Part shown: piece after piece, positions 44,386 through 61,816 of the stretch
Layout: every line of letters starts with the position of its first letter
How positions within the stretch are numbered: position 1 is the stretch's first letter
Assembly: GCA_020025635.1 (NCBI GenBank)
Contig: JAHHRU010000003.1
Coordinates: forward strand, 33,218-97,217
DNA length: 64,000 nt
Direction: 5' to 3'
Origin: Allofournierella sp.
GTDB taxonomy: Bacteria; Bacillota; Clostridia; Oscillospirales; Ruminococcaceae
Made by a program: the position numbers and the translations under genes
The notes under the pieces: generated by a model
What the model saw: only the letters and a program-made list of their open reading frames with translations
Database searches by the model: none
What the model was told of the DNA's origin: nothing

Positions 44386-44386
44386 T

Positions 44387-44798: not shown

Positions 44799-44829
44799 TT
44801 GTAATCAGGATACCAATTTCATTTATATT

Positions 44830-44967: not shown

Positions 44968-46671
44968 ATGAAATTTTCTGAGATGAAATATGTCCGCCCG
45001 GACACCGACGCCCTGATCCAGAGCTACGGGCGCCTGACCGAGGCTGCCCAAAAGGCCGAAAACGGCCAGACCCTGCTGGATCTGTTTGCCGAGCACCGCA
45101 CCTTGAATGACGACTACGAGTGCAACTCCTGCCTTGCCAACATCCGCCACACCCTGGACACCCGTGACGAGTTCTATGACACCGAGAACAACTTCTTCGA
45201 CCGTGTGGGCCCCAGCGTTGGAAACGCCCAGCTGAATTTCTACCGTGCCCTGCTGGCCAGCCCCCACAAGGAGGCCCTTGCCCAGAAGTACGGCCAGATC
45301 CTGCTGGACAAGATGCAGATTTCCGTGAGCTCCGCCAGCGAGGAAGTTCTGGAGCTGATGCAGGAAGAAAACGAGCTGGTAAGCCGTTATCAGAAGCTGT
45401 ACGCCACCTGCACCGTGGAATTTGACGGCAAGACCCTGGCCATTCCCGAAATGGGCCCCTATAAGGAAAGCCTGGACCGCAATGTGCGCAAGGCTGCTTT
45501 TGAGGCCGAGGGCAAAGCTTTCGACAGCATCCGCAATGAGCTGGACGAGATCTACACCCGCATGATCGAAAACCGCAACGAGCAGGCCCGCCGCCTGGGC
45601 TTTGAAAACTATGTTCCCCTTTCCTACCTGCGCATGGGCCGCCTGGGCTATGATGCCAAGGACGTGAAGAGCTTCCGCGATCAGGTTGCCCGGGACGTTA
45701 CCCCTCTTGCCAACAAGGCCATGCAGGCCCAGTTCAAGCGTGTGGGCCTTTCCGATGCCAAGTTCTATGACTGCACCGTTGGCTTTGCCGATGGCAACGC
45801 CGCCCCGGTGGGCACTGCCGAAGAGCTGCTTGCCTTTGCAAAGCAGATGTACACCGAGCTTTCTCCCGAAACCGCTGAGTTCATCCAGATGATGACCGAG
45901 TCGGATCTGTTCGATTTGAAGAGCCGCACCGGCAAGGCCCCCGGCGGCTACGAGTGTCCCATCCCGGTATTCAATGTGCCGTTCATCTTCTCCAACTTCA
46001 ACGGCACCTCCGGCGATGTGGACGTTCTCACCCATGAGGCCGGCCACGCCTTCCAGGCCTGGGTCGCTTTTGGCCAGGATCTGTGCCAGGAGCTGGCAAG
46101 CCCCGGTCTTGAAAGCTGTGAGATCCACTCCATGAGCATGGAGTTCCTCACCGAGCCCTGGCACCACCTGTTCTTCGGCAATGATGCCCGCAAAACCGCC
46201 AAGTACGCCCTGGCCCACGCTCAGGAGGCCCTGACCTTCCTGCCCTACGGCTGCATGGTGGATGAATTCCAGCACATCGTATACGCAAAGCCGGAGCTTA
46301 CCCCCGATGAGCGCAATGCGGTATGGATGGAGCTTGAGCACAAGTACCGCCCCTGGAACGATTTCGAGGATCTGCCCTTCTACGGCCGCGGCGCCGGCTG
46401 GCAGCGTCAGCTGCACGTTTACCAGCACCCCTTCTATTACATTGATTACTGCCTGGCCCAGATGGTAGCCCTGCAGTTCTTTGCTGCCGAGCTCAAGGAC
46501 CCCAAGGACGCCTGGCAGCGCTACATGACCCTGGTAAAGCTGGGCGGCACCGAGACCTATGCAGGTCTTGTCCGTTCTGCCGGCTTTGCGGTGCCCTTCG
46601 AGCCGGGCGCCATCCAGCCGGTGGTGGAGCAGGTCGCCCAGTGGGTGGAAAGCAAAAATCAGCAGCTGTGA
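44968..46671 (+). CDS. pepF: M3 family oligoendopeptidase (PepF-type)
   Basis: 567 aa. HEAGHAF zinc motif plus a downstream E ligand (EIHSMSME). Confidence 0.88.
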   Translation: MKFSEMKYVRPDTDALIQSYGRLTEAAQKAENGQTLLDLFAEHRTLNDDYECNSCLANIRHTLDTRDEFYDTENNFFDRVGPSVGNAQLNFYRALLASPHKEALAQKYGQILLDKMQISVSSASEEVLELMQEENELVSRYQKLYATCTVEFDGKTLAIPEMGPYKESLDRNVRKAAFEAEGKAFDSIRNELDEIYTRMIENRNEQARRLGFENYVPLSYLRMGRLGYDAKDVKSFRDQVARDVTPLANKAMQAQFKRVGLSDAKFYDCTVGFADGNAAPVGTAEELLAFAKQMYTELSPETAEFIQMMTESDLFDLKSRTGKAPGGYECPIPVFNVPFIFSNFNGTSGDVDVLTHEAGHAFQAWVAFGQDLCQELASPGLESCEIHSMSMEFLTEPWHHLFFGNDARKTAKYALAHAQEALTFLPYGCMVDEFQHIVYAKPELTPDERNAVWMELEHKYRPWNDFEDLPFYGRGAGWQRQLHVYQHPFYYIDYCLAQMVALQFFAAELKDPKDAWQRYMTLVKLGGTETYAGLVRSAGFAVPFEPGAIQPVVEQVAQWVESKNQQL

Positions 46672-46895: not shown

Positions 46896-46924
46896 TTGAC
46901 AAACCATTTCACCGCCCTTATAAT
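46896..46924 (+). promoter_or_regulatory. consensus sigma-A promoter for the Opp-like ABC operon
   Basis: Perfect TTGACA-N17-TATAAT. Leaves a ~100-nt leader with two predicted stems before the AAAGGAGG RBS. Confidence 0.75.
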
Positions 46925-47027: not shown

Positions 47028-49349
47028 ATGAAACAGTTTCTTGCACTGCTGCTGGCGTTCACCATGGGCCTGTCCCTGGTTGCATGCGGCGGCGAAAAGG
47101 CTCCCGAGCAGGCTTCCAGCCAGTCCGGCGCTGCAACTTCCGAAGTTGTTCTGGAAGAAGATGAGCAGCCCGGTGCGGATGCTCCCATCGCAGAGCTGAA
47201 GACCCTGAACGGCAAGGTATACGGCGAAGATTACACCGCCCTGTACCAGCAGTTCGGTAAGGACGTCACCATTGCTGACGTTATCGAGGATGAAGAGACC
47301 GGCACCGCTTACATCGTTCGCGACGGCAAGCGCCACACCCTGGGCCTGGACTTCCTGTCCCGCGCTATGGTTTACAACACCACTGTTCCCGAGGGCGGCG
47401 AGTGGGCCGACGAGAACGACGTCTACGCCGACTGGTGGAGACTGTACATCACCCGCTGGAACCAGATGCTGCCCGAAATCCCCCTGTACACCAACGAGTA
47501 CTATGATCTGTACAACGCACAGATCAAGGGCGTTACCGAGTTCCCCACCAACCCCTACTGGACTCCCGCTCAGGCCCTGATCGACTGGACCAGCGAGAAG
47601 AAGGAAAAGAACATCATCCTGGGTGCCTCCACCGAGCTGTCCGGCAAGTTCCGCTTTGCTGCTTTCGGTGCTACCAGCCCCGGAAGCTCTGACCACGATG
47701 TTCAGAAGCTGATCACCGGCCTTGGCACCATTGCACAGACCGTTGACGGCAACTACGTTTGGAACGACACCGTTGTTGCTGAGCACAAGGAAGTCACCAA
47801 CGAAGACGGCAGCCTGACCTATACCATCAAGCTGCACGATGACCTGAAGTTCTCCGATGGTTCCCCCATCACCGCCAAGAACTACCTGGCCGAGACCCTG
47901 GTCTTCTCCACTCCTGTTGGCGCTCAGGCCGCTTCCAAGGATCACATGGCCGGCATGAAGTATGTTGGCTTTGAGGAGTTCAACGTTTACACCGGCGCCG
48001 GCAGCCCCGCTGAGATGCCCCTGAAGGATGCTGACGGCAACGAAGTGAAGGATGCCGACGGCAACGTCAAGACCATTAAGACCAGCAAGGTCTTCTCCGG
48101 CCTGCGTCTGCTCGATGATCTGACCTTCTCCGCCACCATCGATGCTGAATATCTGCCCTACTTCTATGCTCTCACCTATGCCGACTTCCAGCCCCAGCCC
48201 CTGGGCCTGTACCTGGACAAGGCTGACATCAAGGATGACGGCGAAGGCGTTTACCTCACCGATGACTTCTATGCTATGAACGGCGATAAGTACGCTCTGG
48301 CAAGCCATATCTTTGACGGCGCCTGGAACACCAACAACGACTATCCCTACTCCGGCATGTACACCGTTGAGAGATGGAACAACAGCGACAAGTCTGTTGT
48401 TCTGGCTCTGAACCCCGAGTTCAAGGGCGACTACCGCGGCCACAAGCCCACCATCGAGAAGGTCGTTTACAAGCGCACCGTTCTGCAGACCCAGCTGGAG
48501 GACTTCAAGTCCGGCGGCATTGACGTTCTGATGGGCGTTACCGGCGGCGATTCCACCAACGAGGCGATCGCTCTGGCTGACAGCGCTCCCGACAAGTACG
48601 TTTACACCAGCTACTCCCGCGCAGGCTACGGCAAGCTCGCTTTCCGTGCCGACTTCGGCCCTGTTCAGTTCCCCGAAGTCCGTCAGGCCATTGCCTACTG
48701 CATGGACCGTGCAAAGTTCGCTAAGGACTTCACCGGCGGCTACGGCGGCGTTGTGGACGGCCCCTACTACTCCGGTTCCTGGATGTACAAGGAAGCTGTG
48801 AAGGACGGCATGATGCTGAACGCTTATGCTACTTCTGCTGACACTGCCATCAAGGTTCTGGAAGAAGGCGGCTGGGTCTACAACGAGAAGGGCGAAGCTT
48901 ACACCAGCGGCATCCGCTACAAGAAGATCCCTGCTGCCGAGATGGACGAGCGTGATATCACCTTCCAGTCCAAGGACGGCTCTTACAAGACCACCAAGGT
49001 CGGCGATGACTACTACATGCCTCTGTGCCTGAACTGGTACGGCACCCAGGACAACGACTTCTCTGACCTGCTGATGACCGGCTTCCTGAAGAACGACAAC
49101 CTGTCTACCGCAGGCTTCAACGTTCAGTACACTCTGGGCGACTTCAACCCGATGATTGATGAGCTGTCTCAGGCTGCTATCTACGGTTTCTATCAGGGCA
49201 CTCCTCTGTACACCTGCTTCAACCTGGCAACCGGCTACAACAGCGCAGTTTATGACTACTCCTACAATCTGACCATTGATCCGGATGAGTTCGACAACTA
49301 CAGCCTGTTCTACATCAAGGATGAGGCCGACGCTTACTGGTTCGAGTAA
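47028..49349 (+). CDS. ABC transporter substrate-binding lipoprotein, family 5 (peptide/nickel/oligosaccharide type), oversized
   Basis: 773 aa. Lipobox LSLVAC|G. Core block YTIKLHDDLKFSDGSPITAKNY is typical of SBP_bac_5. About 190 aa of extra N-terminal sequence. Confidence 0.85.
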   Translation: MKQFLALLLAFTMGLSLVACGGEKAPEQASSQSGAATSEVVLEEDEQPGADAPIAELKTLNGKVYGEDYTALYQQFGKDVTIADVIEDEETGTAYIVRDGKRHTLGLDFLSRAMVYNTTVPEGGEWADENDVYADWWRLYITRWNQMLPEIPLYTNEYYDLYNAQIKGVTEFPTNPYWTPAQALIDWTSEKKEKNIILGASTELSGKFRFAAFGATSPGSSDHDVQKLITGLGTIAQTVDGNYVWNDTVVAEHKEVTNEDGSLTYTIKLHDDLKFSDGSPITAKNYLAETLVFSTPVGAQAASKDHMAGMKYVGFEEFNVYTGAGSPAEMPLKDADGNEVKDADGNVKTIKTSKVFSGLRLLDDLTFSATIDAEYLPYFYALTYADFQPQPLGLYLDKADIKDDGEGVYLTDDFYAMNGDKYALASHIFDGAWNTNNDYPYSGMYTVERWNNSDKSVVLALNPEFKGDYRGHKPTIEKVVYKRTVLQTQLEDFKSGGIDVLMGVTGGDSTNEAIALADSAPDKYVYTSYSRAGYGKLAFRADFGPVQFPEVRQAIAYCMDRAKFAKDFTGGYGGVVDGPYYSGSWMYKEAVKDGMMLNAYATSADTAIKVLEEGGWVYNEKGEAYTSGIRYKKIPAAEMDERDITFQSKDGSYKTTKVGDDYYMPLCLNWYGTQDNDFSDLLMTGFLKNDNLSTAGFNVQYTLGDFNPMIDELSQAAIYGFYQGTPLYTCFNLATGYNSAVYDYSYNLTIDPDEFDNYSLFYIKDEADAYWFE

Positions 49350-49667: not shown

Positions 49668-50717
49668 ATGAAAATGACAAAATACACCTTAAAGCGAATC
49701 GGGTATATGATGATCGTTCTGGTGATCCTTTCCTTCATCATGTTCATGATCTACAGCCTTGTACCCGCCAACCGGGCTTACACCGACGCCAAAGCTGAGG
49801 TGCAGGCCATGAAAAACACCATTCCCAAGGGTCAGATGAATCAATACTTTGATGATCTTTACCTGAAATATCAGCGTATGTACGGCACCGATACCGAAAA
49901 CAAGGTGGTGCGCTATCTGCGCTGGGTAGGCCTTGCCCCTCTTTACGACGGCAGCTACAACGGCCTGCTTCAGGGCAACCTTGGCTGGTCTTATGAAAAG
50001 AAGCTCCCGGTTCTGGACGTGATCAAGGCGCCCATGCTCAACACTATCAAGATCAATATCATCGCCACGATCCTTGCGCTTGGCATCACCCTGCCTTTGG
50101 GCATTCATTGTGCCGTTAAACGCGGTTCCAAAAGCGACCAGATCGTTCAGGTCTTTACCATTGTTGGTTACAGCCTGCCAAACTTCCTGATCGCGATCCT
50201 GTTTATCTGGATCTTCTGCTCCAAGCTGGGCTGGTTCCCCCCCAGCGGCATGCAGACCCCCGGTTCCCACTATGTGGGCATGCGCAAGTTCCTGGATGAG
50301 CTTTATTATCTTGCGCTGCCCCTGATCACCATGACCTTCTGCTCCTTGGGCGGCATGACCCGTTATGTGCGTGCCTCCATGATCGAAGCGCTGAGCATGG
50401 ACTGCATCAAAACTGCCCGTGCAAAAGGTCTGCGTGAGCGCGCCGTTATCTATTCTCATGCCTGGCGCAACGCTCTGATTCCCATTGTCACCCTGGTTGT
50501 GGGCTGGTTCCTGGGCATTTTTGCCGGCTCTCTTGTGATTGAGGAAATGTTCGCTCTGAACGGCATGGGCCGTTTGATGATCTCTTCTCTGCGCGCTGCT
50601 GACTATGACGTTGTGCTTTTGATGCAGATGTTCTATGTGTTCATGTCTCTGGTCGGCACCCTGGTCATTGACATCATCTACGGTCTGGTTGACCCCCGTG
50701 TTCGTGTTAACAAGTAA
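49668..50717 (+). CDS. ABC transporter permease, OppB/DppB-like
   Basis: 349 aa. YTLKRIGYMMIVLVILSFIMF N-terminus, EAA-type loop (YVRASMIEALSMDCIKTARAKGL). Confidence 0.88.
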   Translation: MKMTKYTLKRIGYMMIVLVILSFIMFMIYSLVPANRAYTDAKAEVQAMKNTIPKGQMNQYFDDLYLKYQRMYGTDTENKVVRYLRWVGLAPLYDGSYNGLLQGNLGWSYEKKLPVLDVIKAPMLNTIKINIIATILALGITLPLGIHCAVKRGSKSDQIVQVFTIVGYSLPNFLIAILFIWIFCSKLGWFPPSGMQTPGSHYVGMRKFLDELYYLALPLITMTFCSLGGMTRYVRASMIEALSMDCIKTARAKGLRERAVIYSHAWRNALIPIVTLVVGWFLGIFAGSLVIEEMFALNGMGRLMISSLRAADYDVVLLMQMFYVFMSLVGTLVIDIIYGLVDPRVRVNK

Positions 50718-50737
50718 TATAAGAGGAGGAACCCTTT

Positions 50738-52729
50738 GTGAGCAAAAAGAATAACAGCAAGACCTCCTCCAACAAGGGAGTCTTTGTCACCCTCGGCGGC
50801 TGGCTGCGCCGCCTGTGGCGCGGTGGCTCGAACGATCTTGCCATGCAGATGGAAGGCCGCACTGCAGCGGCTGCTGCCGATGTGGAAGAGATCGTAAGCC
50901 CCGGCCGGCAGATCCTGAACAATTTCATGGAGCGCAAACTGGCTGTCGGCGCTCTCATCACCCTGATCCTCATGTTCGTCGTCATGTTCGTGGGCCCCTT
51001 GATGATGCCCAAGTACTATGATGCCTATACCGAAGTTACCCAGAAGAGCATCCCTCCCACGATGTCCATGCTGAGCGTTCCCAGCCAGCTGAAAAAGGAA
51101 GGCATCAAGGAGATCGACGGCTTTGGCTCCTTCACGGTCGGCCTTTCCAATGAGGGCAACGTGTTTGTTTGGGGCTCCACCAAGATCGGCACCACCGGTA
51201 TCGATGTGGGTGATATCCCCGAAGAAGTGAAAAACAGCAAGATCGAAATGGTTGCGGCCGGCATCGACCACATTGTTGCCATCACCGAAGAAGGCAAGGT
51301 CATCTGCTGGGGCAACAACAAGCTGGGCCAGTACGGCACCGAGACCGAAGCCCGCGAGCGCGGCGAGGACCCCAACCCCAACATTGCTTACGAGCCTGAG
51401 ATCCTGGTAACCGGCATCGATGTTACCCGTGTCAAAAAGCTCACCGCCGGCTATCAGTGCAGCGCCATCATCCTGGATGACGGCACCCTGTACCTGTGGG
51501 GCAACAAAAACGCCTACGCCAACATGGATCTGTTCCTTTCTCTGGGCAACATCTATGACATGGACTTTACCCTGAACTACATTGTTGGTGTCAACGGCAA
51601 GCGCAACACCATTTACACCGGTTCCCGCGGCCTGTATGATGTGGTCCGCCCGAATGTGGACGGTGAAGCCTACCCCGCCAAGAAATACATCGGCAAGCGT
51701 AAGGTGGAAGAGATCGTTGCCACCTCCACCAGCATGGCCCTTCTGCTGAATGACGGTTCTGTCTGCTTTGCAGGTGACTTCCCTGCCGGTATGCAGCCTG
51801 CCCCGAATCTTCCCGAAGGCGAAAAATTCGTGGATATCGTGGGCGGTTCCTACCATTACAGCGGCCTGACCGATCAGGGCAATGTTTATTCCTGGGGCAG
51901 CAATCAGCTGAACCAGACCGCTGTTCCCAAGAAGCTTTCCAATGTGAGCGAGATTTACAGCGGTTCCTTCCAGACCTATGCGGTCGATGAAGAAGGCGGC
52001 CTGCTGGGCAAATGGGGCCTCAAGGGCTACCTCTTCGGCACCGATACCCATGGCGCTGACATCTTCCAGCGCATCATCAACGGCGGCCGTATGACCATGA
52101 CCATCGGTGCTGTTGCCGTTATCATCTCCTCTCTCATCGGTATCGTGATCGGCTGCCTGTCCGGCTACTTCGGCGGCAAGCTGGATATCTTCCTCATGCG
52201 TGTGGCCGAGATCTTCTCCGCCATCCCCTTCCTGCCTTTTGCCATGATCCTTTCTGCTGTTATGGGCCGTTCGACCCTCACAGAAACCATGCGCATCTTC
52301 ATCATCATGTGCATCCTGGGCGTTCTGACCTGGCCCGGCCTTGCCCGCCTTGTCCGCGGTCAGGTGCTGGTTGCCCGTGAAAGCGAGTACGTCACCGCCG
52401 CAAAGGCCATGGGCGTTAAGGAAAGCTCCATCGCCTTCAAGCACATCCTTCCCAACGTAATGTCTGTCATTCTGGTTACCCTGATGCTGGACTTCGGCAC
52501 CTGCATGCTCACCGAGTCTTCTCTGAGCTACCTGGGCTTCGGCGTGGCTTATCCCCGTCCCACCTGGGGCAATATGCTGAACGGCGCCAACAACGCCACC
52601 ATCATCAACACCTACTGGTGGCAGTGGCTGTTCACTGCGATCTTCCTGGCCGTTACCACGATCTGCATCAACATCGTCGGCGACGCCCTGCGTGACGTGA
52701 TGGACCCCAAGTCCAGTGTTGAAAAGTAA
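50738..52729 (+). CDS. ABC transporter permease, OppC/DppC-like, with a ~325-aa RCC1-repeat (beta-propeller-like) insertion in the first extracytoplasmic loop
   Basis: 663 aa, GTG start after GAGGAGG. TM1 at about aa 68-90. RCC1-type repeats (GNVFVWGST, GKVICWGNNKLGQYG, GTLYLWGNKN, GNVYSWGSNQLNQ) at about aa 105-430. Then the canonical OppC core: LFGTDTHGADIFQRII..., EAA loop EYVTAAKAMGV. Confidence 0.85.
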   Translation: MSKKNNSKTSSNKGVFVTLGGWLRRLWRGGSNDLAMQMEGRTAAAAADVEEIVSPGRQILNNFMERKLAVGALITLILMFVVMFVGPLMMPKYYDAYTEVTQKSIPPTMSMLSVPSQLKKEGIKEIDGFGSFTVGLSNEGNVFVWGSTKIGTTGIDVGDIPEEVKNSKIEMVAAGIDHIVAITEEGKVICWGNNKLGQYGTETEARERGEDPNPNIAYEPEILVTGIDVTRVKKLTAGYQCSAIILDDGTLYLWGNKNAYANMDLFLSLGNIYDMDFTLNYIVGVNGKRNTIYTGSRGLYDVVRPNVDGEAYPAKKYIGKRKVEEIVATSTSMALLLNDGSVCFAGDFPAGMQPAPNLPEGEKFVDIVGGSYHYSGLTDQGNVYSWGSNQLNQTAVPKKLSNVSEIYSGSFQTYAVDEEGGLLGKWGLKGYLFGTDTHGADIFQRIINGGRMTMTIGAVAVIISSLIGIVIGCLSGYFGGKLDIFLMRVAEIFSAIPFLPFAMILSAVMGRSTLTETMRIFIIMCILGVLTWPGLARLVRGQVLVARESEYVTAAKAMGVKESSIAFKHILPNVMSVILVTLMLDFGTCMLTESSLSYLGFGVAYPRPTWGNMLNGANNATIINTYWWQWLFTAIFLAVTTICINIVGDALRDVMDPKSSVEK

Positions 52730-52741
52730 GGAGGGTACGAC

Positions 52742-53755
52742 ATGCCATTACTGGAAATCAAAAACCTGCGCACATTCTTCAAAACCAAAAAGGGCATCGT
52801 CAAGGCCGTCAACGACGTGTCTTATTCCCTGGAGCCCGGCAAGACCATCGGCATCGTCGGTGAGTCCGGTTCCGGCAAGTCCGTTTCTGCAATGAGCATC
52901 CTGCGTCTTCTGGACGATAACGGATACATTGACTCGGGCGAGATCTATTTCGAGGGCCGTGAGCTGACAAAGCTTCCCATGGATGAGCTTTATTCCATCC
53001 GCGGCAACGCCATCTCTGTTATCTTCCAGGAGCCCATGACCAGCCTGAACCCGGTGTTCAGCATCGAGCGCCAGCTGTGCGAGCCTTTCATCATTCATCA
53101 GCACATGAAGAAGAAGGAAGCCCGCGAACAGGCCCTCAAGATGCTTTATGACGTGCAGATCCCCAACCCGGAAGCCGTTATGAAGCAGTATCCCCACCAG
53201 CTTTCCGGCGGTATGCGCCAGCGTGTCATGATCGCCATGGCCCTGGCCTGCCGGCCCAAGATCCTGATTGCTGACGAGCCCACCACCGCTCTGGACGTTA
53301 CCATCCAGGCCCAGATCCTGCGCCTGATGAACGACCTGCAGAAGGAAAAGGGCACCTCCATCATCTTCATCACCCATGACCTGGGCGTTATCAACGAGAT
53401 GGCGGACGATGTGGCCGTTATGTACTGCGGCCAGGTGGTGGAAAAGGCTTCTGCCCGCACCATCTTCAGCAACTGCACCATGAGCCACCCCTATACCGAA
53501 GGCCTCATGTACTCCATTCCCCGCATTGAAAACGTGGGCGCAAAGATCGAGCCCATCCCCGGCGTGGTGCCGCACCCCCTGGCTCTGCCCAAGGGCTGCA
53601 AGTTCGCCCCCCGCTGCAAATACTGCACCAAGAAATGCTTGGAAGAAGAGCCCACTCTTACCGATGTGGGCAATGGCCAGCAGATCCGGTGTTTCTATCC
53701 TGAAAAGGAGGTAAGACAGAGTGAAGAGCACAAAAAAATTACTGTCAATCACTAA
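52742..53755 (+). CDS. ABC transporter ATP-binding protein, OppD/DppD-like
   Basis: 337 aa. Walker A GESGSGKS, LSGGMRQR, Walker B ILIADEPTTALD, and a C-terminal oligopeptide-type extension with Cys cluster. Confidence 0.92.
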   Translation: MPLLEIKNLRTFFKTKKGIVKAVNDVSYSLEPGKTIGIVGESGSGKSVSAMSILRLLDDNGYIDSGEIYFEGRELTKLPMDELYSIRGNAISVIFQEPMTSLNPVFSIERQLCEPFIIHQHMKKKEAREQALKMLYDVQIPNPEAVMKQYPHQLSGGMRQRVMIAMALACRPKILIADEPTTALDVTIQAQILRLMNDLQKEKGTSIIFITHDLGVINEMADDVAVMYCGQVVEKASARTIFSNCTMSHPYTEGLMYSIPRIENVGAKIEPIPGVVPHPLALPKGCKFAPRCKYCTKKCLEEEPTLTDVGNGQQIRCFYPEKEVRQSEEHKKITVNH

Positions 53756-55328
53756 TTTAAAGAAATATTTCCCTGTCGCCAAATCCTCCATGTTCCAGAA
53801 AGAGCAGCTGTATGTCCGTGCCAACGAGGATATCTCTCTGGATATCTACGAAGGCGAGACCCTGGGCATCGTAGGTGAGTCCGGCTGCGGCAAATCCACT
53901 CTGGGACGTGTGCTGCTTCAGCTCTATCCCCAGACTGCCGGTACCACCATGTATTACGGTGTCACCCTGGAGGACATGCCCCCGAAGTATGTTCCCAAGA
54001 CCCTGAAAAACCTGGACAAATACAAGGCAGAACTGAAAAAGGCCCACGATAAGGCCGAAGAGCTGGCCAAAAAGGTCGAAGCAGCCGGCGGCGAAGATGC
54101 AGCAGACTTCTATCTGCTGCAGGAAGCAAACATTGCCCGCTGTGAAGAGCAGACCCAGCTGAGCCACCTGGCAAAGCTTTTGGGCGGTTTCTTTGCCGTG
54201 GATGAAGGCGGCAAGGGCTGCGGCCTTCTGCTGGAGCTGTATGAGCAGAACTGCAAGCGTGCTGCTGCCCGCAAAAAGCTCACTGCGGCCCAGACCGAGC
54301 GGAACCATCTGGCTCAGATTTCCGATGAAAAGAAGGCTGCCAAGAATGCCGAGAAGCTGGCCAAGCTGGATGCCGAGATCAAGAGCCTGAACGAAGAAGT
54401 ATCGGCCGAGACCAAGGCTTCCGCTGACCTGAACGCCCGTTTGGACGAGCTGCGCAGCCAGTATAAGGACAACGCAGAGTTCCAGAAATACGAGGCAATG
54501 CGGGATGACGGCATCGACCTTTCCCGTTTGGATTACGATGAAATGCGCCTGCTGCGTCAGGATCTGCAGATCATCTTCCAGGATCCTTACTCCTCTTTGA
54601 ACCCCCGGTTCACCATCGGCCAGATCATTGAGGAAGGTGTTGCTACCCACGGCCTGTACAAGCCTGGTTCTCCCGCTATGCGCCAGCATATCGTGGACAC
54701 TATGGTCAAGTGCGGCCTGCAGGAATACATGCTGCACCGCTATCCCCACCAGTTCTCCGGCGGCCAGCGTCAGCGTGTGGCCATTGCCCGTGCACTGGCT
54801 GTTGGCCCCAAGTTCATTGTGTGTGACGAATGCGTTTCCGCTCTGGACGTTTCCATCCAGTCTCAGATCATCAACCTGCTGCAGGAGCTGAAGGAAAAAG
54901 AGAACCTGACCTACATGTTCATTTCTCATGACCTGTCGGTCGTCCGCTACATTTCCGACCGCATCTGCGTGATGTATCTGGGCAACGTGGTGGAGCTGGC
55001 CGATGCCGCAACCATCTTTGATGATCCCCGCCACCCCTACACCGTGGCCCTGCTCTCTTCCATCCCCACCACCAATGTGGATGTGGCAAAGAAAGAGCGC
55101 ATCATTCTGGAGGGCAACATTCCCAGCCCCATCAAGCCGCCGGCAGGATGCAAATTCCACACCCGCTGCTACATGGCCTGCGAGAAATGTGCCCGCGTGA
55201 CCCCCGAACTGCGTGAGATCGAGCCCGGCCACTTCCTGGCCTGCCACTTCCCTGAGCGCAAGATCGATGCTGACGGCAAATACCTCTTCGAGCTTCCCAA
55301 GATGGCCCCCTCTGCAAAGGACAACTGA
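53721..55328 (+). CDS. ABC transporter ATP-binding protein, OppF/DppF-like, with a ~180-aa charged coiled-coil-like insertion
   Basis: 535 aa. Walker A GESGCGKST (about aa 52-60). The Q-loop IIFQDPYSSLNP appears only at about aa 284. LSGGQRQR, FIVCDECVSALD. The intervening segment is rich in K/E/A/L heptad-like sequence. Confidence 0.85.
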   Translation: MKSTKKLLSITNLKKYFPVAKSSMFQKEQLYVRANEDISLDIYEGETLGIVGESGCGKSTLGRVLLQLYPQTAGTTMYYGVTLEDMPPKYVPKTLKNLDKYKAELKKAHDKAEELAKKVEAAGGEDAADFYLLQEANIARCEEQTQLSHLAKLLGGFFAVDEGGKGCGLLLELYEQNCKRAAARKKLTAAQTERNHLAQISDEKKAAKNAEKLAKLDAEIKSLNEEVSAETKASADLNARLDELRSQYKDNAEFQKYEAMRDDGIDLSRLDYDEMRLLRQDLQIIFQDPYSSLNPRFTIGQIIEEGVATHGLYKPGSPAMRQHIVDTMVKCGLQEYMLHRYPHQFSGGQRQRVAIARALAVGPKFIVCDECVSALDVSIQSQIINLLQELKEKENLTYMFISHDLSVVRYISDRICVMYLGNVVELADAATIFDDPRHPYTVALLSSIPTTNVDVAKKERIILEGNIPSPIKPPAGCKFHTRCYMACEKCARVTPELREIEPGHFLACHFPERKIDADGKYLFELPKMAPSAKDN

Positions 55329-55342
55329 TCCGGGTGGCTTAA

Positions 55343-55549: not shown

Positions 55550-55567
55550 CCCGCAAACAGCATTTCA

Positions 55568-55610
55568 GCCGCCTTACTGCCCCGTGTGCAGTAAGGCGGC
55601 TTTTGATTTT
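55568..55610 (+). terminator. rho-independent terminator ending the Opp-like operon
   Basis: GCCGCCTTACTGC-7 nt-GCAGTAAGGCGGC, followed by TTTTGATTTT. Confidence 0.85.
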
Positions 55611-55616
55611 CATCCA

Positions 55617-55660
55617 TAAAAAAGTGCGCTGGAAGACTAGCATCTTCCAGCGCACTTTTA
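55617..55660 (-). terminator. rho-independent terminator for the minus-strand SIS gene
   Basis: AGTGCGCTGGAAGA-loop-TCTTCCAGCGCACT. On the minus strand it is followed by a T-run (AAAAAA on the plus strand at 55618..55623). Confidence 0.8.
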
Positions 55661-55705
55661 CTTTTTGAGTTTGTCGGAATCTTGGGTCAATTCGAAATCA
55701 GCCGT

Positions 55706-56449
55706 TTAATTCAGGTAGTGAATCTGATCCTTATATTTCTCCATAAGCTCTGCGTTGTAAGCGTTGGCACCATCAACGTTGCCGCTCTTGAAGATGGGCG
55801 GCTGCACACCGGCAGCCAGCATCTTCTCGGCTACCTTGATGACCAGAGAGTTCACCACATAGGCACCGCCAACCGTCGAAGTGGGAGCAGCCTTATAGCC
55901 CAGGCCTTCAATGGGAACACAGGCATCCCCCAGCTCTGCACAGTCATCGATCACGATTTCGCAGTGCTCCATCATCATAGTGCCCGACGGATCCAAAGAG
56001 GTTACCTTGCTGGCAAAGTCCTTGCTCACAATGCCGATCACATGGATGCCCTTCTCCTTTGCCTTCATGGCCATCTCGATCACGATGGGAATTCGTGCAG
56101 AAACCGAGTGGATGATCAGGCAGTCGCCGGGTTTAATGCCGGAACGCTCCAGGGTGATGGTTGCCAGACCGGGCAGACGTTCGATCTGGGTGGTCATTGC
56201 GTACGGGCGCACATTGGGCATCAGGTTCGGAACATGAATCGGGCTGATCAGGGCCAGTCCGCCTCCGCGGTAAACCATCTCCTCAACCATCATGCCTGCA
56301 TGAGAGGGGCCAAAAGCATAAATGCTCTTGCCAGCCATTGCAGTGTCAGCCATCAGCTGAGCTGCCTTGTCGATCTCTTCTTCCTGAGTCTCATAAATCT
56401 CATTCAGGATGCTGATCAGCTTGTCTTTGTACCATTCGATGTAGTTCAT
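55706..56449 (-). CDS. SIS (sugar isomerase) domain protein, UPF0309-like
   Basis: ATG at 56449 (MNYIEWYKDK...). SIYAFGPSHAGMM and GDCLIIHSVSARIPI blocks are typical of SIS domains. Confidence 0.7.
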   Translation of the reverse strand: MNYIEWYKDKLISILNEIYETQEEEIDKAAQLMADTAMAGKSIYAFGPSHAGMMVEEMVYRGGGLALISPIHVPNLMPNVRPYAMTTQIERLPGLATITLERSGIKPGDCLIIHSVSARIPIVIEMAMKAKEKGIHVIGIVSKDFASKVTSLDPSGTMMMEHCEIVIDDCAELGDACVPIEGLGYKAAPTSTVGGAYVVNSLVIKVAEKMLAAGVQPPIFKSGNVDGANAYNAELMEKYKDQIHYLN

Positions 56450-56593
56450 AATAAACGATCCTTTCTTTTCATTTTCCTGCAAATGGCAGGAAGTTTTTTT
56501 ATTTTGATTTTAAAATGCCAAAACAAGATATCTTTGTTGTTTTGGCTGCCATTCAATTTCCGAAACACGCTCAAACTCTGTCACTTCGACGCT

Positions 56594-56622
56594 AGTATAA
56601 CACGGTCGATATTTTATTTCAA
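56594..56622 (-). promoter_or_regulatory. candidate promoter for the SIS gene (extended -10)
   Basis: On the minus strand: TTGAAA-N17 (ending TGT)-TATACT. The -35 lies inside the palindrome ATTTCA-ATA-TGAAAT. Confidence 0.5.
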
Positions 56623-56654
56623 TATGAAATTAATAAATAATTTCAGTTTGGAAT
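56616..56654. promoter_or_regulatory. pair of 15-bp dyads ATTTCA-N3-TGRAAT (candidate ROK-regulator operators)
   Basis: 56616..56630 is ATTTCAATATGAAAT (perfect 6-3-6 palindrome). 56640..56654 is ATTTCAGTTTGGAAT (one mismatch). Centres are 24 bp apart. Confidence 0.4.
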
Positions 56655-56758
56655 TAAATCAGCGTTCCTGACAAAAAAAGTATTTCTTTTTGTCGTTTTT
56701 GCCATTATAATCTGTGATTTTTTACAACTTCTATTCATTTTTGTCAGCATTTTCACGA

Positions 56759-56787
56759 TTGACAGTGCAAATCATTCCTGATATATT
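56759..56787 (+). promoter_or_regulatory. sigma-A type promoter for the NitT/TauT-type binding-protein gene
   Basis: TTGACA-N17-TATATT. Leaves a ~150-nt leader before the AGGAGG RBS and the ATG at 56941. Confidence 0.6.
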
Positions 56788-56940
56788 TGTAATCAGAAAC
56801 AAACTTGTCACTTTACACCCAATGCACTTTTTTAAACGCACTCAGGTCTGCACGATTCGTATACAACACATATCTAGAGCCCTTTTCCCTCTCAGAAAGA
56901 TCGATTTTTGGCTCTCAAATTCAGGAGGTTTAAAATCATT

Positions 56941-58104
56941 ATGAAAAAAAGAACATTCTTAAAGAAAGCGGCTGCCGGCGTTGCTCTGTTGTCTTTGATG
57001 CTGAACTTGGCAGCTTGCGGCTCTGGCGAACCGGTGGCCAACGATCCCGCACAGCAGCCGGAAAAGGTCGAAATGCCCTGGCCCGATGTAAAACCGCTGG
57101 AAACGCCGGTCACTCTGAATGTTGCGCTGCTTGCCAACACCACACCTCACCTTCCCACTTACATTGCACAGCAGAAGGGTTGGCTGTCCGCAGTGGGCAT
57201 TGAGGTAAATCCCGTTGTGTTCAAGAACGGTCCCTCCATGACCGAGGCCATGGGCTCCGGCGCCTGGGATTGCGGTTCCACCGGCATCGGCGGTGTCATC
57301 ACCGGCGTTCTCAATCAGGATATGAAGGTCCTGGCTGTTGCCGCCCGCGACGAAGGCGGTTTCCAGGCTTTCTTTGCACGTCCTGATAACCCGATCGTAA
57401 AGGCCGGCAAGGGCAACGGAAAAGTTCCCGAACTGTATGGCACTGCCGACACCTGGCGCGGCCAGGAAATTCTTTGCGCTGTGGGCACCACAAACCAGTT
57501 CCTGCTTTATAAAACTTTGGACAATTTCGGTTTGACCTTGGATGATGTCAACGTGGTCAATATGGACTCTTCTGCCGCAAACACCGCATTCCTCTCCGGC
57601 CAGGGTGATGTGGGCGGCGTTTCCGGCCCCATCGTATTTTCCGATGACAAGAAAGATTTTGTGATGGTTTCTTCGGATGCATGGGCAAAAACCGGCATCG
57701 TTACCAGCTTTGTTGCTTCTCCGAAATCCTGGAGCGAAAAGCAGGAAGCGATCACCAAGTGGCTGGAAGTGATCGTTATGACCAATGAATGGATCGAACA
57801 GAACCGTGAAGAAGCCGCAAAGTATCTCACCAAGATGTATGAAGAAGACGGTTATCCTTCTACCGATGAGGCCAATCTGGATCTGATCACCAACAACCCC
57901 TTCAGCGGGCTGGATTATCAGAAAGACATCATCAGCAGCAACGAAGAAGGCACCATGAAGATGAAGCAGCAGACTTTGGATGCACTTAAGGGCTATGTGG
58001 CCATGGGCAACTACACCCAGGAGCAGTACGACTCGGTTGCCGCATCCACCTCCAACTTCCTGCCGGATGCAATTGAGCAGATCGCTGCAAACCACAGCAA
58101 ATAA
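56941..58104 (+). CDS. ABC transporter substrate-binding lipoprotein, NitT/TauT (NMT1/SsuA-like) family
   Basis: MKKRTFLKKAAAGVALLSLMLNLAAC|G lipobox. 387 aa from the ATG at 56941. Confidence 0.8.
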   Translation: MKKRTFLKKAAAGVALLSLMLNLAACGSGEPVANDPAQQPEKVEMPWPDVKPLETPVTLNVALLANTTPHLPTYIAQQKGWLSAVGIEVNPVVFKNGPSMTEAMGSGAWDCGSTGIGGVITGVLNQDMKVLAVAARDEGGFQAFFARPDNPIVKAGKGNGKVPELYGTADTWRGQEILCAVGTTNQFLLYKTLDNFGLTLDDVNVVNMDSSAANTAFLSGQGDVGGVSGPIVFSDDKKDFVMVSSDAWAKTGIVTSFVASPKSWSEKQEAITKWLEVIVMTNEWIEQNREEAAKYLTKMYEEDGYPSTDEANLDLITNNPFSGLDYQKDIISSNEEGTMKMKQQTLDALKGYVAMGNYTQEQYDSVAASTSNFLPDAIEQIAANHSK

Positions 58105-58112
58105 ACGATCCG

Positions 58113-58170
58113 GATTTCCGGCCAAGACTGCCGCTAAAACCGCCTGCTTGGCCGGAAATCTCGATGTTTT
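58113..58170 (+). terminator. long hairpin after the binding-protein gene (possible terminator or mRNA stabiliser)
   Basis: GATTTCCGGCCAAG-20 nt-CTTGGCCGGAAATC (14-bp perfect stem). The T-run is weak and offset (TCGATGTTTT). Confidence 0.45.
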
Positions 58171-58263
58171 ACTTGTTTAAGCACTGTATCCGTAATATTA
58201 TATAATTGTATTCAACTTATGTAGGCATTATGGATATAAAGACTTGAAAGGCGGTCATTCCTG

Positions 58264-59448
58264 ATGGAAGTAAACACCCCCGAAATCAAAACAGCTTCTC
58301 TGAGAGAAAACAACGTTAAAACTGTCATGCGCTGCCTGCGGAAATGCGGTCCGCTCTCCAGAAGTGAGATTTGCGACAAAACGCAGATTTCAAAGCCGAC
58401 CGCTACGCGGGTGATCAATGCGCTGATTTCCGATGGATGGCTGGAAGAGCTCAACAGCATCAAAACCGCCAGAGGACGTCACCCCATTGAACTGGACATC
58501 CGCCCTGATGCCGCATACAGCTTCGGCGTTAATATTTCCAAAACACACCTGAGCATCGCACTTGTGGATCTGAAGCTGAACATTGTAGATACCTTCAAGG
58601 CTTCCATCCGGAACCTGGAACATGTGGACCAGTTTTTGAAACTGATCGCAGATACGATTTTGGATATGCAGCAGCGCAATCATATCCCGAATGAAAAAAT
58701 TCTCGGAATCGGAGTCGGAGCTCCCGGCCTGATCGACACGCAGAATGGGGTCATGAAGGATTTTGCCCTTTGGGGCAAACTGCGCAACATTCCAATTTCC
58801 AGCTTTCTCAGTGAACACACCGCCTTTAAAACCAAGGTGGACAACAACTGCAATACCTGGCTTGCCGGTGAAATGTGGAACGGATATGCACAAGGCTGCA
58901 GCAATGCTTTGTTTATTTTAAACAGCGAAGGTATTGGCTGCGGCATTGCTGTGGACAATCTCATCCATAACATTTCGGGCGGTCTTGGCCATCTTTCGGT
59001 CAATTTTCGCGGCGACCTGTGTTACTGCGGCAGCCGCGGCTGCATCGAGACCTATTGCTCCACTGACAACATTGAACGCAAAGCAGAAGAAAAAATCAAC
59101 GCTCTGTGCCGTACCGGAGGTTCCTGCCTCTATTCACTTCCCATTGATTTTAAAACGGTATGCCAGAGCATCGATAACGGCGATATGCTTTTTGCCAATA
59201 TCCTGCTGGAAGCAGCTTCTGCCCTTGCCTGCGGAATCGTCAGTCTGATCAAAATATTCCATCCGCAGATCATCATTCTTTCCGGCGCACTTTTTGAGGC
59301 AAGCGATTTTTATTACAACAATGTTGTGATGGAAATTCAAAGCCAGCTTTCCTTTAATGTCAGTTCTCCGCAAATCGTGCGGCGCAATGTAAGTGATGCT
59401 CTTTTTGAAATCGGTGCAGCAACTTTGATCCTGAAGGAACTTTTTTAA
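58264..59448 (+). CDS. ROK family transcriptional regulator (NagC/XylR-like)
   Basis: 394 aa. N-terminal wHTH (NNVKTVMRCLRKCGPLSRSEICDKTQISKPTATRVINAL). ROK zinc motif GHLSV...CYCGSRGCIETY. Confidence 0.88.
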   Translation: MEVNTPEIKTASLRENNVKTVMRCLRKCGPLSRSEICDKTQISKPTATRVINALISDGWLEELNSIKTARGRHPIELDIRPDAAYSFGVNISKTHLSIALVDLKLNIVDTFKASIRNLEHVDQFLKLIADTILDMQQRNHIPNEKILGIGVGAPGLIDTQNGVMKDFALWGKLRNIPISSFLSEHTAFKTKVDNNCNTWLAGEMWNGYAQGCSNALFILNSEGIGCGIAVDNLIHNISGGLGHLSVNFRGDLCYCGSRGCIETYCSTDNIERKAEEKINALCRTGGSCLYSLPIDFKTVCQSIDNGDMLFANILLEAASALACGIVSLIKIFHPQIIILSGALFEASDFYYNNVVMEIQSQLSFNVSSPQIVRRNVSDALFEIGAATLILKELF

Positions 59449-59479
59449 AACATTCTCTCTTACAAAACGGAGTTGCACA

Positions 59480-61802: not shown

Positions 61803-61816
61803 TGGAGGTGTGAACT

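Follow-up and report, generated by a model that had tools for sequence, protein, structure and literature searches.

A predicted RCC1-like beta-propeller in the first extracytoplasmic loop of an OppC-type ABC permease from gut and rumen Clostridia

In type I ABC importers the permease subunits lie almost entirely within the membrane. The P2 loop of the maltose transporter, a folded periplasmic domain of the permease MalF that projects ~3 nm beyond the membrane and stays bound to the binding protein over the whole cycle, has been treated as the unique exception (PMC6906923). In solved Dpp/Opp complexes the binding protein sits atop the pore and the TM1–TM2 (P1) loop is peripheral (PMC12136057, PMC10954201). 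In DppABCDF and M. tuberculosis DppABCD, DppB touches the binding protein through its P1 loop, which inserts a scoop and seals the outward-facing cavity, while the P1 loop of DppC is short and has little contact with the binding protein (PMC12136057, PMC10954201). Folded extracytoplasmic domains covalently joined to a permease also occur in OpuA, GlnPQ and the Bdellovibrio MalE-MalF fusion, where the fused domain is the binding protein itself (PMC6906923).

We analyzed a 64,000-nt stretch of DNA, hereafter the window, from Allofournierella sp. (GCA_020025635.1, contig JAHHRU010000003.1, positions 33,218 to 97,217), in which an OppC-type permease carries a large insert of the RCC1 type and the binding protein, unlike in these fusions, is separately encoded. 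The initial annotation had suggested that no characterised importer has a membrane subunit with a propeller, and our literature search likewise found no publication describing an RCC1 propeller-OppC fusion.

The OppC permease and the position of its insert

The product of 50738..52729, whose 663-aa reading frame was confirmed in the ORF list, is the OppC subunit, one of the two permeases of an Opp/Dpp-type ABC importer with five components. It has BPD_transp_1 with an EAA loop, an OppC_N domain and six TM segments, and it is encoded in a matching operon. Pfam placed PF12911 OppC_N at aa 54-107 (30 bits vs a cut-off of 23.9) and PF00528 BPD_transp_1 at aa 468-658 (E=9e-32, 110.7 bits vs 26.4). 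A PDB sequence search aligned residues 80-301 of E. coli OppC to aa 429-659 (2.5e-49). The permease shares its OppC_N TM1, six-TM core, EAA loop and pre-TM2 G-T-D with E. coli OppC (8z21_B), E. coli DppC (8z1v_B) and M. tuberculosis OppC (8j5q_C). The core motif YLFGTDTHGADIFQRII lies at aa 431-447 and the EAA-type motif reads EYVTAAKAMG...ILPN. The closest NCBIfam equivalogs are Opp4C for OppC and Opp4B for OppB, but none of those scored for the permease (Opp4C, Opp3C, OppC, DppC, NikC and others) passes its cut-off, the best being Opp4C with 283.1 bits vs 350, so that OppC membership and substrate assignment stand at the family level, with no named orthologue.

The P1 loop sets this permease apart from its solved homologues. 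In E. coli OppC it spans about 9 residues, between 71 and 80, whereas here it has roughly 340 residues including the propeller. The insert itself comprises ~320 residues (aa 116-430) between TM1 and the core, a placement made in the initial annotation and on which Pfam, the PDB alignment and hydropathy agree; the coordinates 51050..52027 correspond to aa 105-430. Hydropathy gives one hydrophobic segment N-terminal to the insert and five C-terminal to it, that is six TM segments with both termini cytoplasmic, and the permease aligns to solved E. coli OppC across TM1 and TM2-TM6. The 66 N-terminal residues hold 10 K/R and a signal peptide is absent. Given this basic tail, the one-plus-five arrangement of segments, and an EAA loop between the fourth and fifth segments that must be cytoplasmic, the propeller must lie on the extracytoplasmic side. 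Both of its ends connect to the membrane, to TM1 through a 24-residue linker, of which Y93, D95, Y97, T101, Q102, P107 and P115 are invariant in the close family, and to TM2 through a last strand that runs into W-G-L-K-G-Y-L-F-G-T-D. The features of the locus are collected in Table 1.

Table 1. Features of the propeller-OppC locus, with coordinates in the window (aa numbers refer to the product of the gene concerned)
Feature	Coordinates	Strand	Remarks
M3-family oligoendopeptidase (PepF-like)	44968..46671	+	Own promoter-like site and terminator 46739-46773; Peptidase_M3 in homologous locus L001
Sigma-70-type promoter-like site	46896..46924	+	TTGACA-17-TATAAT, 12/12; upstream of binding-protein gene; consensus match only
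Family-5 substrate-binding lipoprotein, 773 aa	47028..49349	+	Lipobox LVAC, Cys20; Pfam SBP_bac_5 aa 256-624; PDB OppA 9p48 3.7e-24
Binding-protein N-terminal extension, aa ~56-190	47193..47597	+	Outside Pfam and PDB matches
OppB-type permease, 349 aa	49668..50717	+	Pfam BPD_transp_1; NCBIfam Opp4B 1.6e-67; in 81/81 loci
OppC-type ABC permease with inserted RCC1-like propeller	50738..52729	+	663 aa, GTG start; Pfam OppC_N, RCC1/RCC1_2/RLD and BPD_transp_1
Cytoplasmic N-terminal tail, aa 1-67	50738..50938	+	Basic, poorly conserved: entropy 1.52 (family alignment), pLDDT <50
TM1, aa 68-90, within OppC_N	50939..51007	+	Hydropathy peak 2.76; modelled helix 67-89
Conserved extracytoplasmic linker, aa 92-115, KYYDAYTEVTQKSIPPTMSMLSVP	51011..51082	+	Entropy 0.69; low-confidence model
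Predicted blade 1, aa 116-161	51083..51220	+	Strands 123-129, 132-137, 142-146; entropy 0.58, most conserved blade; GNVFVWG at aa 140
Predicted blade 2, aa 162-224	51221..51409	+	Strands 169-174, 178-183, 188-192; long acidic loop past W-G motif
Predicted blade 3, aa 225-268	51410..51541	+	Strands 232-237, 241-246, 250-256; entropy 0.73
Predicted blade 4, aa 269-316	51542..51685	+	Strands 274-277, 282-285, 302-304; degenerate, without W-G motif
Predicted blade 5, aa 317-357	51686..51808	+	Strands 323-328, 332-337, 342-346; GSVCFAG at aa 340
Predicted blade 6, aa 358-398	51809..51931	+	Strands 364-369, 373-378, 383-387; GNVYSWG at aa 381; in BLIP-II match
Predicted blade 7, aa 399-430, directly joined to OppC core	51932..52027	+	Strands 405-408, 412-416, 422-427
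OppC core, aa 431-663: pre-TM2 GTD motif and TM2-TM6	52028..52726	+	BPD_transp_1; five hydrophobic segments; entropy 0.30
EAA coupling loop, aa 550-573, EYVTAAKAMGVKESSIAFKHILPN	52385..52456	+	Between hydrophobic segments 517-540 and 573-593; fixes topology
OppD-type ATPase, 337 aa	52742..53755	+	Pfam ABC_tran and oligo_HPY; in 81/81 loci
OppF-type ATPase, 535 aa, unusually long	53721..55328	+	ABC_tran in two stretches and oligo_HPY; E. coli OppF 2.5e-87
OppF insertion, ~185 aa, aa 78-262	53952..54506	+	Between Walker A region and Q-loop; E. coli residue 87 aligns to 266
Two terminator-like hairpins past OppF	55567..55659	+	Consensus scan

Fold and conservation of the insert

The insert is predicted to be a closed seven-bladed RCC1-like beta-propeller. 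Pfam matched PF13540 RCC1_2 (E=2e-24, 85.1 bits vs a cut-off of 22) and PF00415 RCC1 (E=1.2e-11, 45.4 bits vs 21.7), with the strongest stretches around blade 2, at aa 171-198 and 185-245. The PF25390 RCC1-like domain model reached E=1.2e-34, but its 120.7 bits fall short of the curated cut-off of 150; the insert has shorter blades, the fourth of which is degenerate. PDB sequence matches inside the insert were to UVR8 (1.5e-18) and BLIP-II (1.4e-15, aa 334-427). AlphaFold2 modelled aa 110-430 at pLDDT 85-95 and placed 21 strands in it, three in each of seven blades. Foldseek searches with this model gave BLIP-II (TM-score to target 0.72-0.76), UVR8 and RCC1-like domains as the best matches, at E of about 1e-12, and a probability of 1.00 to BLIP-II, UVR8, RPGR, HERC2 and RCC1. 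The RCC1-type identity given in the initial annotation was thus borne out by profile, PDB and model searches, and every motif quoted there was found in the protein: GNVFVWGSTKIG at aa 140, GKVICWGNNKLGQYG at 186, GTLYLWGNKNAY at 249, GSVCFAGDF at 340, GNVYSWGSNQLNQ at 381 and GGLLGKWG at 420, along with IVAITEEG at 179, SAIILDDG at 242 and SGLTDQG at 375. Its estimate of about six repeats has to be raised to seven blades according to the model, since blade 4 had been overlooked owing to the loss of its W-G signature.

BLIP-II of Streptomyces exfoliatus (3qhy, 3qi0, 1jtd) is the nearest counterpart in structure, being likewise a compact bacterial extracytoplasmic seven-bladed RCC1-like propeller with ~40-residue blades; the sequence match covers blades 5-7 at an identity of about 19-21%. 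It is a free secreted inhibitor of class A beta-lactamases, whereas the propeller here forms a loop within a membrane protein. We rejected a BLIP-II-type inhibitor identity for this reason; nothing points to beta-lactamase binding, and the neighbouring BlaI/BlaR1-like genes (the BlaR1-like one, of M56+M23 type, lies upstream) are common to the closest relative only, in 1/81 loci. Eukaryotic RCC1, UVR8, HERC2 and RPGR have the same repeat family and seven-bladed fold, but their RCC1-like domains are found in the cytoplasm or nucleus, where they serve as GTPase exchange factors, photoreceptors or adaptors, in contrast to a transporter loop insert without the canonical partners. Exchange activity and GTPase binding are not defining features of the RCC1-like fold family. 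Guanine-nucleotide exchange or Ran/GTPase binding is not expected of the propeller, as it is an extracytoplasmic bacterial domain with no partner GTPase present. The most similar propellers outside permeases occur in giant surface proteins with Ig-like domains.

An alignment of 107 superfamily members showed that the invariant residues are scaffold residues only; surface residues conserved at the family level hold only inside sub-clades. Blade 4 is the least conserved blade superfamily-wide, and the junction of blade 7 with the core, W426-G427-x-x-G430, is kept superfamily-wide. The B-C loop positions F132, D177/H178, Y239/Q240, H373/Y374 and Q412/Y414 are invariant in the close family. This pattern of scaffold-only invariance with surface conservation confined to sub-clades is more readily reconciled with a protein partner diverging together with the propeller than with a fixed site for a small ligand.

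Operon, distribution and origin

The operon has the five genes of Opp/Dpp importers, including two oligo_HPY ATPases and a family-5 binding protein, and the order SBP-OppB-OppC-OppD-OppF was conserved in 81/81 loci where the contig allows, with the binding-protein gene upstream in 76/81; it is also kept in 21 divergent loci (32-43% identical). The N-terminal extension of the binding protein gave no family match in Pfam and PDB searches; it is present in 69/81 close loci and missing from many divergent RCC1-OppC loci, and so it is not a universal partner of the propeller. OppF differs from that of other Opp/Dpp importers by the extra ~185-aa insertion, which is rich in A/E/K/L and described as helical. 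A long OppF was found in most close RCC1-OppC operons and, among 19 assessable divergent ones, as 16 intact genes and one split gene, compared with 0/6 ordinary Opp operons. The PepF-like gene adjoins the operon in 25/81 loci and also in L104, L107, L110 and L112, a loose linkage. Judging from Opp-family membership and this frequent neighbour, the cargo is likely to be oligopeptides. The loci compared showed no conserved regulator gene adjoining the operon and no conserved gene for a secreted protease or hydrolase near it.

The search for long OppC homologues proposed in the initial annotation was productive: the 120 best homologues all share the architecture, are 69-86% identical and have 624-668 aa in one continuous ORF. 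Among Oscillospiraceae and Lachnospiraceae of the gut and rumen, at least 113 species-level genomes carry this architecture; 80 of these were examined at the locus level, isolates included, and each had a single continuous ORF. Cultured carriers include Acetatifactor muris DSM 23669, Butyrivibrio proteoclasticus P18 and Faecousia intestinalis. The close homologues are annotated merely as 'ABC transporter permease subunit', and the family is large rather than rare. In a neighbour-joining tree built from the core only, 40/40 RCC1-type representatives were monophyletic (93/100 bootstraps), indicating a single ancient insertion. The propeller was inserted once, early in a gut/rumen Clostridia clade, and retained under purifying selection. 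We also noted a second family of inserts, unrelated to the propeller, in the P1 loop of OppC, which may therefore accept accessory domains more generally.

A fusion created by sequencing or assembly, or an insert that is in fact cytoplasmic, has a negligible probability. The protein set of the family does contain chimeric gene calls (P0168, P0172, P0180), but the continuity of the ORF in all 120 best homologues and 80 independent genomes excludes the frameshift raised in the initial annotation, the propeller is internal to OppC, between OppC_N and the core, rather than terminal, and the insert has to be outside, given where the EAA loop lies. We therefore rejected the assembly artefact on the homologue, genome-locus and core-tree evidence.

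Possible roles of the propeller

The initial annotation had put the propeller outside the membrane and atop the translocation pore. The topology upholds the former; the latter is doubtful, as the binding protein occupies that place in the solved Dpp/Opp complexes. By comparison with those complexes, the propeller more likely lies lateral to the pore, beside the docked binding protein. We tentatively propose that it may provide a platform on which the lipoprotein binding protein docks or is retained. The propeller would stand beside the docking site as the pseudo-symmetric counterpart of the P1 'scoop' of OppB/DppB, which has the same TM1-TM2 position in the partner subunit but is a helical hairpin of 30-56 residues instead of a large propeller, and it would hold or orient the membrane-tethered binding protein on the OppC side through the transport cycle. 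The Ig-like P2 domain of MalF, which binds MalE at 7-22 uM, could serve as the model for such an action. P2 of E. coli MalFGK2 is likewise a folded extracytoplasmic domain in a type I importer permease and offers the best functional analogy; it is Ig-like, about 185 aa long and placed between TM3 and TM4 in another permease family, in contrast to a 320-aa propeller between TM1 and TM2, and the modelled fold makes the propeller an analogue, not a homologue, of P2. OppC and OppF form a pair in solved homologues; the propeller on the outer face and the helical insertion of OppF in the cytoplasm would thus belong to the same half of the transporter, and the two may form one functional unit. The membrane core was modelled at low confidence (pLDDT 50-60), so that the model gives no firm orientation of the propeller relative to the pore, which counts against the docking role.

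We looked for co-variation by mirror-tree analysis of 69 operons, using partial r controlling for the ATPases. Divergence of the propeller gave a partial r of 0.60 with the N-terminal extension of the binding protein, 0.55 with OppB and 0.52 with its own membrane core, a weak discrimination that is at most suggestive of docking, compared with 0.82 for the OppB-OppC contact as the positive control. Blade 3 had the highest residual co-variation with the binding protein among the blades. The co-variation of propeller and binding protein could stem from a shared rate shift of exposed parts.

Other roles for the propeller have to be weighed against docking. It is a fairly unlikely candidate for a second receptor, one face of which captures peptides, polypeptides or glycans and concentrates them or hands them over to the binding protein. 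Ligand binding on one face is common among propellers, BLIP-II, the propeller most similar in structure, comes from a bacterium, is secreted and binds another protein tightly, and the B-C loop positions do not vary in the close family; however, no non-scaffold residue is conserved over the 107 members, making a clade-wide fixed site unlikely, and each such operon already has a dedicated binding protein. The prospect of an envelope anchor or spacer, which would bind peptidoglycan or a wall polymer or keep the wall of these monoderms off the docking site, is slim. An extracytoplasmic domain in Gram-positive-type Clostridia is consistent with it, as are the nearest non-permease propellers in giant surface proteins, but Pfam recognised no wall-binding module (SLH, LysM, CWB), and since only a few residues separate either end of the propeller from the membrane, it could extend only a limited way into the wall.

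Slimmer still is the chance of a sensor in which an extracellular cue modulates the ATPase cycle from OppC to OppF, with the helical insertion as the cytoplasmic output. It would account for the near-constant company of a long OppF and agrees with the physical pairing of OppC/DppC with OppF/DppF in solved complexes (PMC12136057), and MalF P2 reportedly signals substrate availability to the MalK dimer (PMC6906923). Yet two divergent operons (L083 and L094) keep the propeller with an OppF of normal length, the insertion in OppF is very fast-evolving (mean distance 1.52) and shows no co-variation with the propeller (partial r -0.31), and a conserved regulator gene beside the operon is lacking. 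Recruitment of an extracellular protease or cell-wall hydrolase, coupling substrate release to uptake, is very unlikely even though propellers of the BLIP-II type bind enzymes from the class that recognises penicillin and AmpG1 is reported to join a permease and a lytic enzyme domain in one protein (PMC13507758): no secreted protease or hydrolase gene is conserved nearby, the BlaR1-like gene is shared with only one of the 81 loci, and PepF is cytoplasmic. A docking or retention platform remains our tentative preference.

What is new is that an entire clade of Opp importers, from Clostridia that abound in gut and rumen, has a 320-residue propeller on the outside of OppC, and the systems that bear it usually also have a large helical insertion in the matching ATPase. 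We consider it unlikely, if less so than an anchor, that the propeller and the OppF insertion make the Opp system more than a nutrient pump, either because the propeller acts as a receptor, recognising polypeptides, surface molecules of host or microbes, or a secreted enzyme, and so gates or triggers transport, or as a transporter-receptor signalling across the membrane. If true, such a receptor or signalling reading would add a previously unrecognised accessory layer to type I ABC importers, widespread in gut Clostridia. Peptide uptake feeds both nutrition and peptide signalling in Firmicutes. The cultured carriers make the question of the propeller experimentally accessible; its function would show how monoderm bacteria manage tethered binding proteins, and could reveal a new mechanism of substrate capture or signalling in peptide uptake.

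An RCC1-type domain within the OppC permease

The 663-aa OppC-type ABC permease of the operon (OppC-propeller) is a member of the OppC permease family, as judged at the family level by its domains, topology and operon; no specific NCBIfam equivalog cut-off was reached by it or by the Opp-family matches of the operon. The motifs quoted in the initial annotation were all found at the expected positions of the open reading frame, the insert that it placed at 51050..52027 corresponds to aa 105-430, and the core motif YLFGTDTHGADIFQRII lies at aa 431-447. In a PDB sequence search, E. coli OppC residues 80-301 matched aa 429-659 of OppC-propeller at 2.5e-49 and residues 30-71 aligned with its TM1, so about nine loop residues of the E. 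coli protein have been swapped for about 340. The proposal that the insert is of the RCC1 type was borne out far beyond chance by the RCC1_2 and RCC1 Pfam models, both above their cut-offs, and by PDB sequence matches to UVR8 (1.5e-18), BLIP-II (1.4e-15) and yeast RCC1. On the basis of the repeat models and the predicted fold, we assign the insert to the RCC1-repeat propeller family, the cut-off of the whole-domain Pfam model having been missed. No internal repeats were returned when the insert was compared with itself by BLASTP; the blades are too diverged for pairwise BLAST, and we therefore used profile and structure evidence for the repeats.

AlphaFold2, run on a shallow alignment of the window protein and 77 homologues (at least 69% identity), modelled aa ~110-430 at a pLDDT of 85-95, with strands in seven sets (123-146, 169-192, 232-256, 274-304, 323-346, 364-387 and 405-427). 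The top Foldseek match of this model in the PDB was BLIP-II (TM-score normalised to target 0.72-0.76, probability 1.00), followed by UVR8, RPGR, HERC2, RCC1 and the CRINKLY4 receptor-kinase ectodomain, each with a probability of 1.00. The insert is thus predicted to be a seven-bladed RCC1-like propeller. RCC1 repeats are present as first annotated, but the count of about six gives way to seven blades in the model; blade 4 (aa 269-316) was overlooked because it lacks the W-G signature. The membrane core was modelled at a pLDDT of only 50-60 because of the shallow alignment, and the model consequently does not fix how the propeller is oriented towards the pore.

The topology was derived from hydropathy and homology. 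The N-terminal 66 residues carry 10 K/R and no signal peptide. A single hydrophobic segment (aa 68-90) lies ahead of the insert and five lie behind it; the insert itself is net acidic (30 K/R vs 42 D/E). Contact with the ATPase requires the EAA coupling loop (aa 550-573), which separates the fourth segment from the fifth, to be cytoplasmic; this places the segment before TM2, and hence the insert, outside the cell. The extracytoplasmic location originally suggested for the insert is therefore upheld by the segment count and the position of the EAA loop. The last propeller strand continues directly into the conserved W-G-L-K-G-Y-L-F-G-T-D junction, and TM1 is joined to the propeller by a conserved 24-residue linker, KYYDAYTEVTQKSIPPTMSMLSVP, which is better conserved than the propeller (entropy 0.69 vs 0.95) though of low confidence in the model. 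Together, these features suggest that the propeller is pinned to the membrane surface at both ends, and the linker may mediate an interaction, with OppB or the binding protein among the conceivable partners.

Operon context and unusual partner subunits

Features of the propeller-bearing Opp operon and its surroundings
Feature	Window coordinates	Strand	Protein length or residues	Remarks
BlaI-like repressor (Penicillinase_R) and BlaR1-like sensor	42688..44767	-		upstream of the peptidase gene
PepF-like M3 oligoendopeptidase	44968..46671	+		own promoter-like site 44902-44930; terminator 46739-46773
Sigma-70 consensus match	46896-46924			12/12, consensus scan
Family-5 lipoprotein binding protein	47028..49349		773 aa	
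Binding-protein N-terminal extension	47193..47597		aa ~56-190	~140 residues
OppB	49668..50717		349 aa	
OppC-propeller	50738..52729	+	663 aa	GTG start
OppC_N (Pfam)			aa 54-107	E 4.7e-7; 30 bits, cut-off 23.9
TM1-to-propeller linker	51011..51082		aa 92-115	
RCC1_2 (Pfam)			insert	E 2e-24; 85.1 bits, cut-off 22
RCC1 (Pfam)			insert	E 1.2e-11; 45.4 bits, cut-off 21.7
RCC1-like domain PF25390 (Pfam)			insert	E 1.2e-34; 120.7 bits, below cut-off of 150
BPD_transp_1 (Pfam)			aa 468-658	E 9e-32; 110.7 bits, cut-off 26.4
OppD	52742..53755		337 aa	
OppF	53721..55328		535 aa	
OppF insertion	53952..54506		aa 78-262	~185 residues
Terminator-like hairpins	55567-55659			consensus scan

The gene order of the operon was kept in 81/81 related loci (the close loci) where the contig allows, and in 21 metagenomic loci with just 32-43% identity in OppC. 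An Rfam search of 44000-56500 gave no regulatory RNA match. The PepF-like peptidase gene adjoins the operon in 25 of the 81 related loci and in four divergent loci; this neighbour and the Opp-family matches point to oligopeptides as the putative cargo. In the BlaR1-like sensor, a Peptidase_M56 domain is accompanied by a Peptidase_M23 domain at the C-terminus. We considered a link between the BlaI/BlaR1-like pair and the propeller, which resembles BLIP-II in fold only, and rejected it since the pair is common to just the closest relative, L001, among the 81 loci; the two are probably unrelated. Just downstream of the operon, window 56001..62000 has a G+C content of 0.48-0.50 vs 0.54-0.62 elsewhere in the window, and could be a compositionally distinct segment.

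Two other subunits of the transporter are unusual. OppF carries an A/E/K/L-rich insertion between the Walker A region and the Q-loop that is probably helical or coiled-coil and evolves very fast (mean distance 1.52). Most close loci pair the propeller with a long OppF, which in 19 assessable divergent loci was seen as 16 intact genes and one split gene; in ordinary Opp operons from the same scan OppF measures 318-371 aa, with the insertion in 0/6. The solved Dpp complexes show the F ATPase paired with the C permease (PMC12136057), suggesting that the propeller and the OppF insertion belong to the same half of the transporter. Both ATPases have a cysteine cluster in the oligo_HPY region (C286, C292, C295, C299 and C317 in OppD; C477, C483, C487, C490 and C508 in OppF), reminiscent of the domains of DppD and DppF that are reported to bind [4Fe-4S] (PMC12136057). 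Neither Pfam nor the PDB sequences matched the N-terminal extension of the binding protein. Of the close loci, 69/81 have the extension, but many divergent operons with a propeller lack it, and we therefore rejected an obligatory coupling of the extension with the propeller.

Distribution and origin of propeller-bearing OppC

The best 120 matches examined from a collection of 5.8 billion proteins were all 624-668 aa long and 69-86% identical to the window protein. Each had the identical five-family Pfam set except P0098, which lacks only PF00415 and retains RCC1_2 and the RCC1-like domain; the only name given among these homologues was 'ABC transporter permease subunit'. A scan of species-representative genomes yielded 113 matching genomes, of which 80 were kept. 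Among these, the carriers include Oscillospiraceae (Faecousia, Ruthenibacterium, Limivicinus, Acutalibacter and others) and Lachnospiraceae (Acetatifactor, Eisenbergiella and Butyrivibrio), with human, rodent, rabbit, chicken and ruminant guts as sources. Isolates are represented by Acetatifactor muris DSM 23669, Butyrivibrio proteoclasticus P18, several other Butyrivibrio strains and Faecousia intestinalis CLA-AA-H192. The conservation of the architecture in the best 120 homologues and across species-representative genomes, including isolates, agrees with the initial view that the gene is no assembly fusion, and an artefact is exceedingly improbable.

In a 50%-identity library, 40 of the 68 permease-like representatives combined RCC1 repeats with the permease domain. 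All 40 formed one clade, with no intruders and in 93/100 bootstraps, on a distance-based (neighbor-joining) tree of the membrane core only, assessed by an unrooted bipartition test on representatives picked by similarity to the query. The single clade indicates one ancient insertion of the propeller. Short relatives with high core identity were considered as propeller-loss variants and rejected, as P0168, P0172, P0180 and P0162 are chimeric or truncated gene calls; several cluster representatives have an unrelated N-terminus (e.g. transketolase-like or S-component-like) joined to the OppC core.

Some RCC1-type representatives have inserts of 450-850 residues with RCC1 stretches at both ends. 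These large-insert proteins, P0133 (1142 aa), P0141 (1072 aa), P0149, P0148 and P0146, may contain two propellers or a propeller plus another domain. A second, unrelated OppC family (21 representatives at 50% identity, P0214-P0270, alignment A2) likewise carries an insert of 290-490 aa in the TM1-TM2 loop, with a repeated F-x-x-x-G-x-x-Y module and without a Pfam or PDB sequence match, and four further singleton OppC proteins carry other inserts. From these sequences, the TM1-TM2 (P1) loop of OppC looks like a recurrent insertion site.

Possible role of the propeller

The binding protein caps the permease pair in both E. coli DppABCDF and M. tuberculosis DppABCD. There, the B subunit contributes its P1 loop as a 'scoop' that touches the binding protein and seals the cavity, and the C subunit has a short P1 loop with few contacts (PMC12136057; PMC10954201). 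With this layout, a domain of 320 residues in place of the short C-subunit loop should stand beside the docked binding protein. The placement of the propeller atop the translocation pore, as first envisaged, is thus not sustained; a lateral position is expected. MalF has an Ig-like P2 loop that stays bound to MalE during the whole cycle and is described as a feature of this transporter alone (PMC6906923). Among type I importer permeases, this loop is the sole well-studied earlier case of a folded extracytoplasmic domain, and it is not homologous to the propeller. By analogy with MalF P2, we tentatively propose that the propeller would serve as a platform on which the tethered binding protein is docked or retained, a reading that we favor at somewhat less than even confidence.

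We analyzed co-variation in 69 complete operons, using the ATPases to remove the shared phylogenetic signal. The best co-varying partner of the propeller was the N-terminal extension of the binding protein (partial r 0.60), followed by OppB (0.55), its own membrane core (0.52) and the binding-protein core (0.47), the pairs being non-independent; OppB with the OppC core, a known contact and our positive control, gave 0.82. Mantel p was <=0.0005 in all five permuted propeller comparisons, the control not being among the permuted pairs. Only a narrow margin separates the partners, and the signal may stem from exposed parts that evolve in concert, so that the fit with the docking proposal is suggestive. 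Across 107 superfamily members only the scaffold is invariant (G-x-V-x-x-W-G, A-G-x-x-H, inter-blade prolines and the junction), and within the close family many surface residues of the propeller are invariant as well. This pattern, a weak fit with the docking proposal, would be easier to reconcile with a protein partner that diverges alongside the propeller than with a fixed site for a small ligand or for catalysis.

An independent ligand-capture site, which the conservation pattern suits less well, appears unlikely but is the role we would consider after docking. The attachment of the propeller at both ends speaks against a wall anchor or spacer, which we regard as quite unlikely, and its probable location on the same transporter half as the OppF insertion speaks for a sensor coupled to that insertion, which we find slightly less credible still. 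Recruitment of an enzyme to the propeller seems the most doubtful of these roles. Giant multi-RCC1 proteins of 900-7000 aa were rejected as a guide to function, as their high scores come from many repeats and they contain only Ig-like domains in addition.

The full-text literature, in a corpus without most subscription-journal papers, yielded no account of an ABC importer permease with a propeller or RCC1 domain; one apparent match, in which 'RCC1' occurred 21 times, came from the name of a strain. The propeller-OppC sequences are already in public databases; what our analysis shows is their anatomy, and the mechanism is a proposal. A propeller-bearing OppC would be unexpected to a transporter specialist, and it is widespread in important gut taxa and testable in cultured strains.
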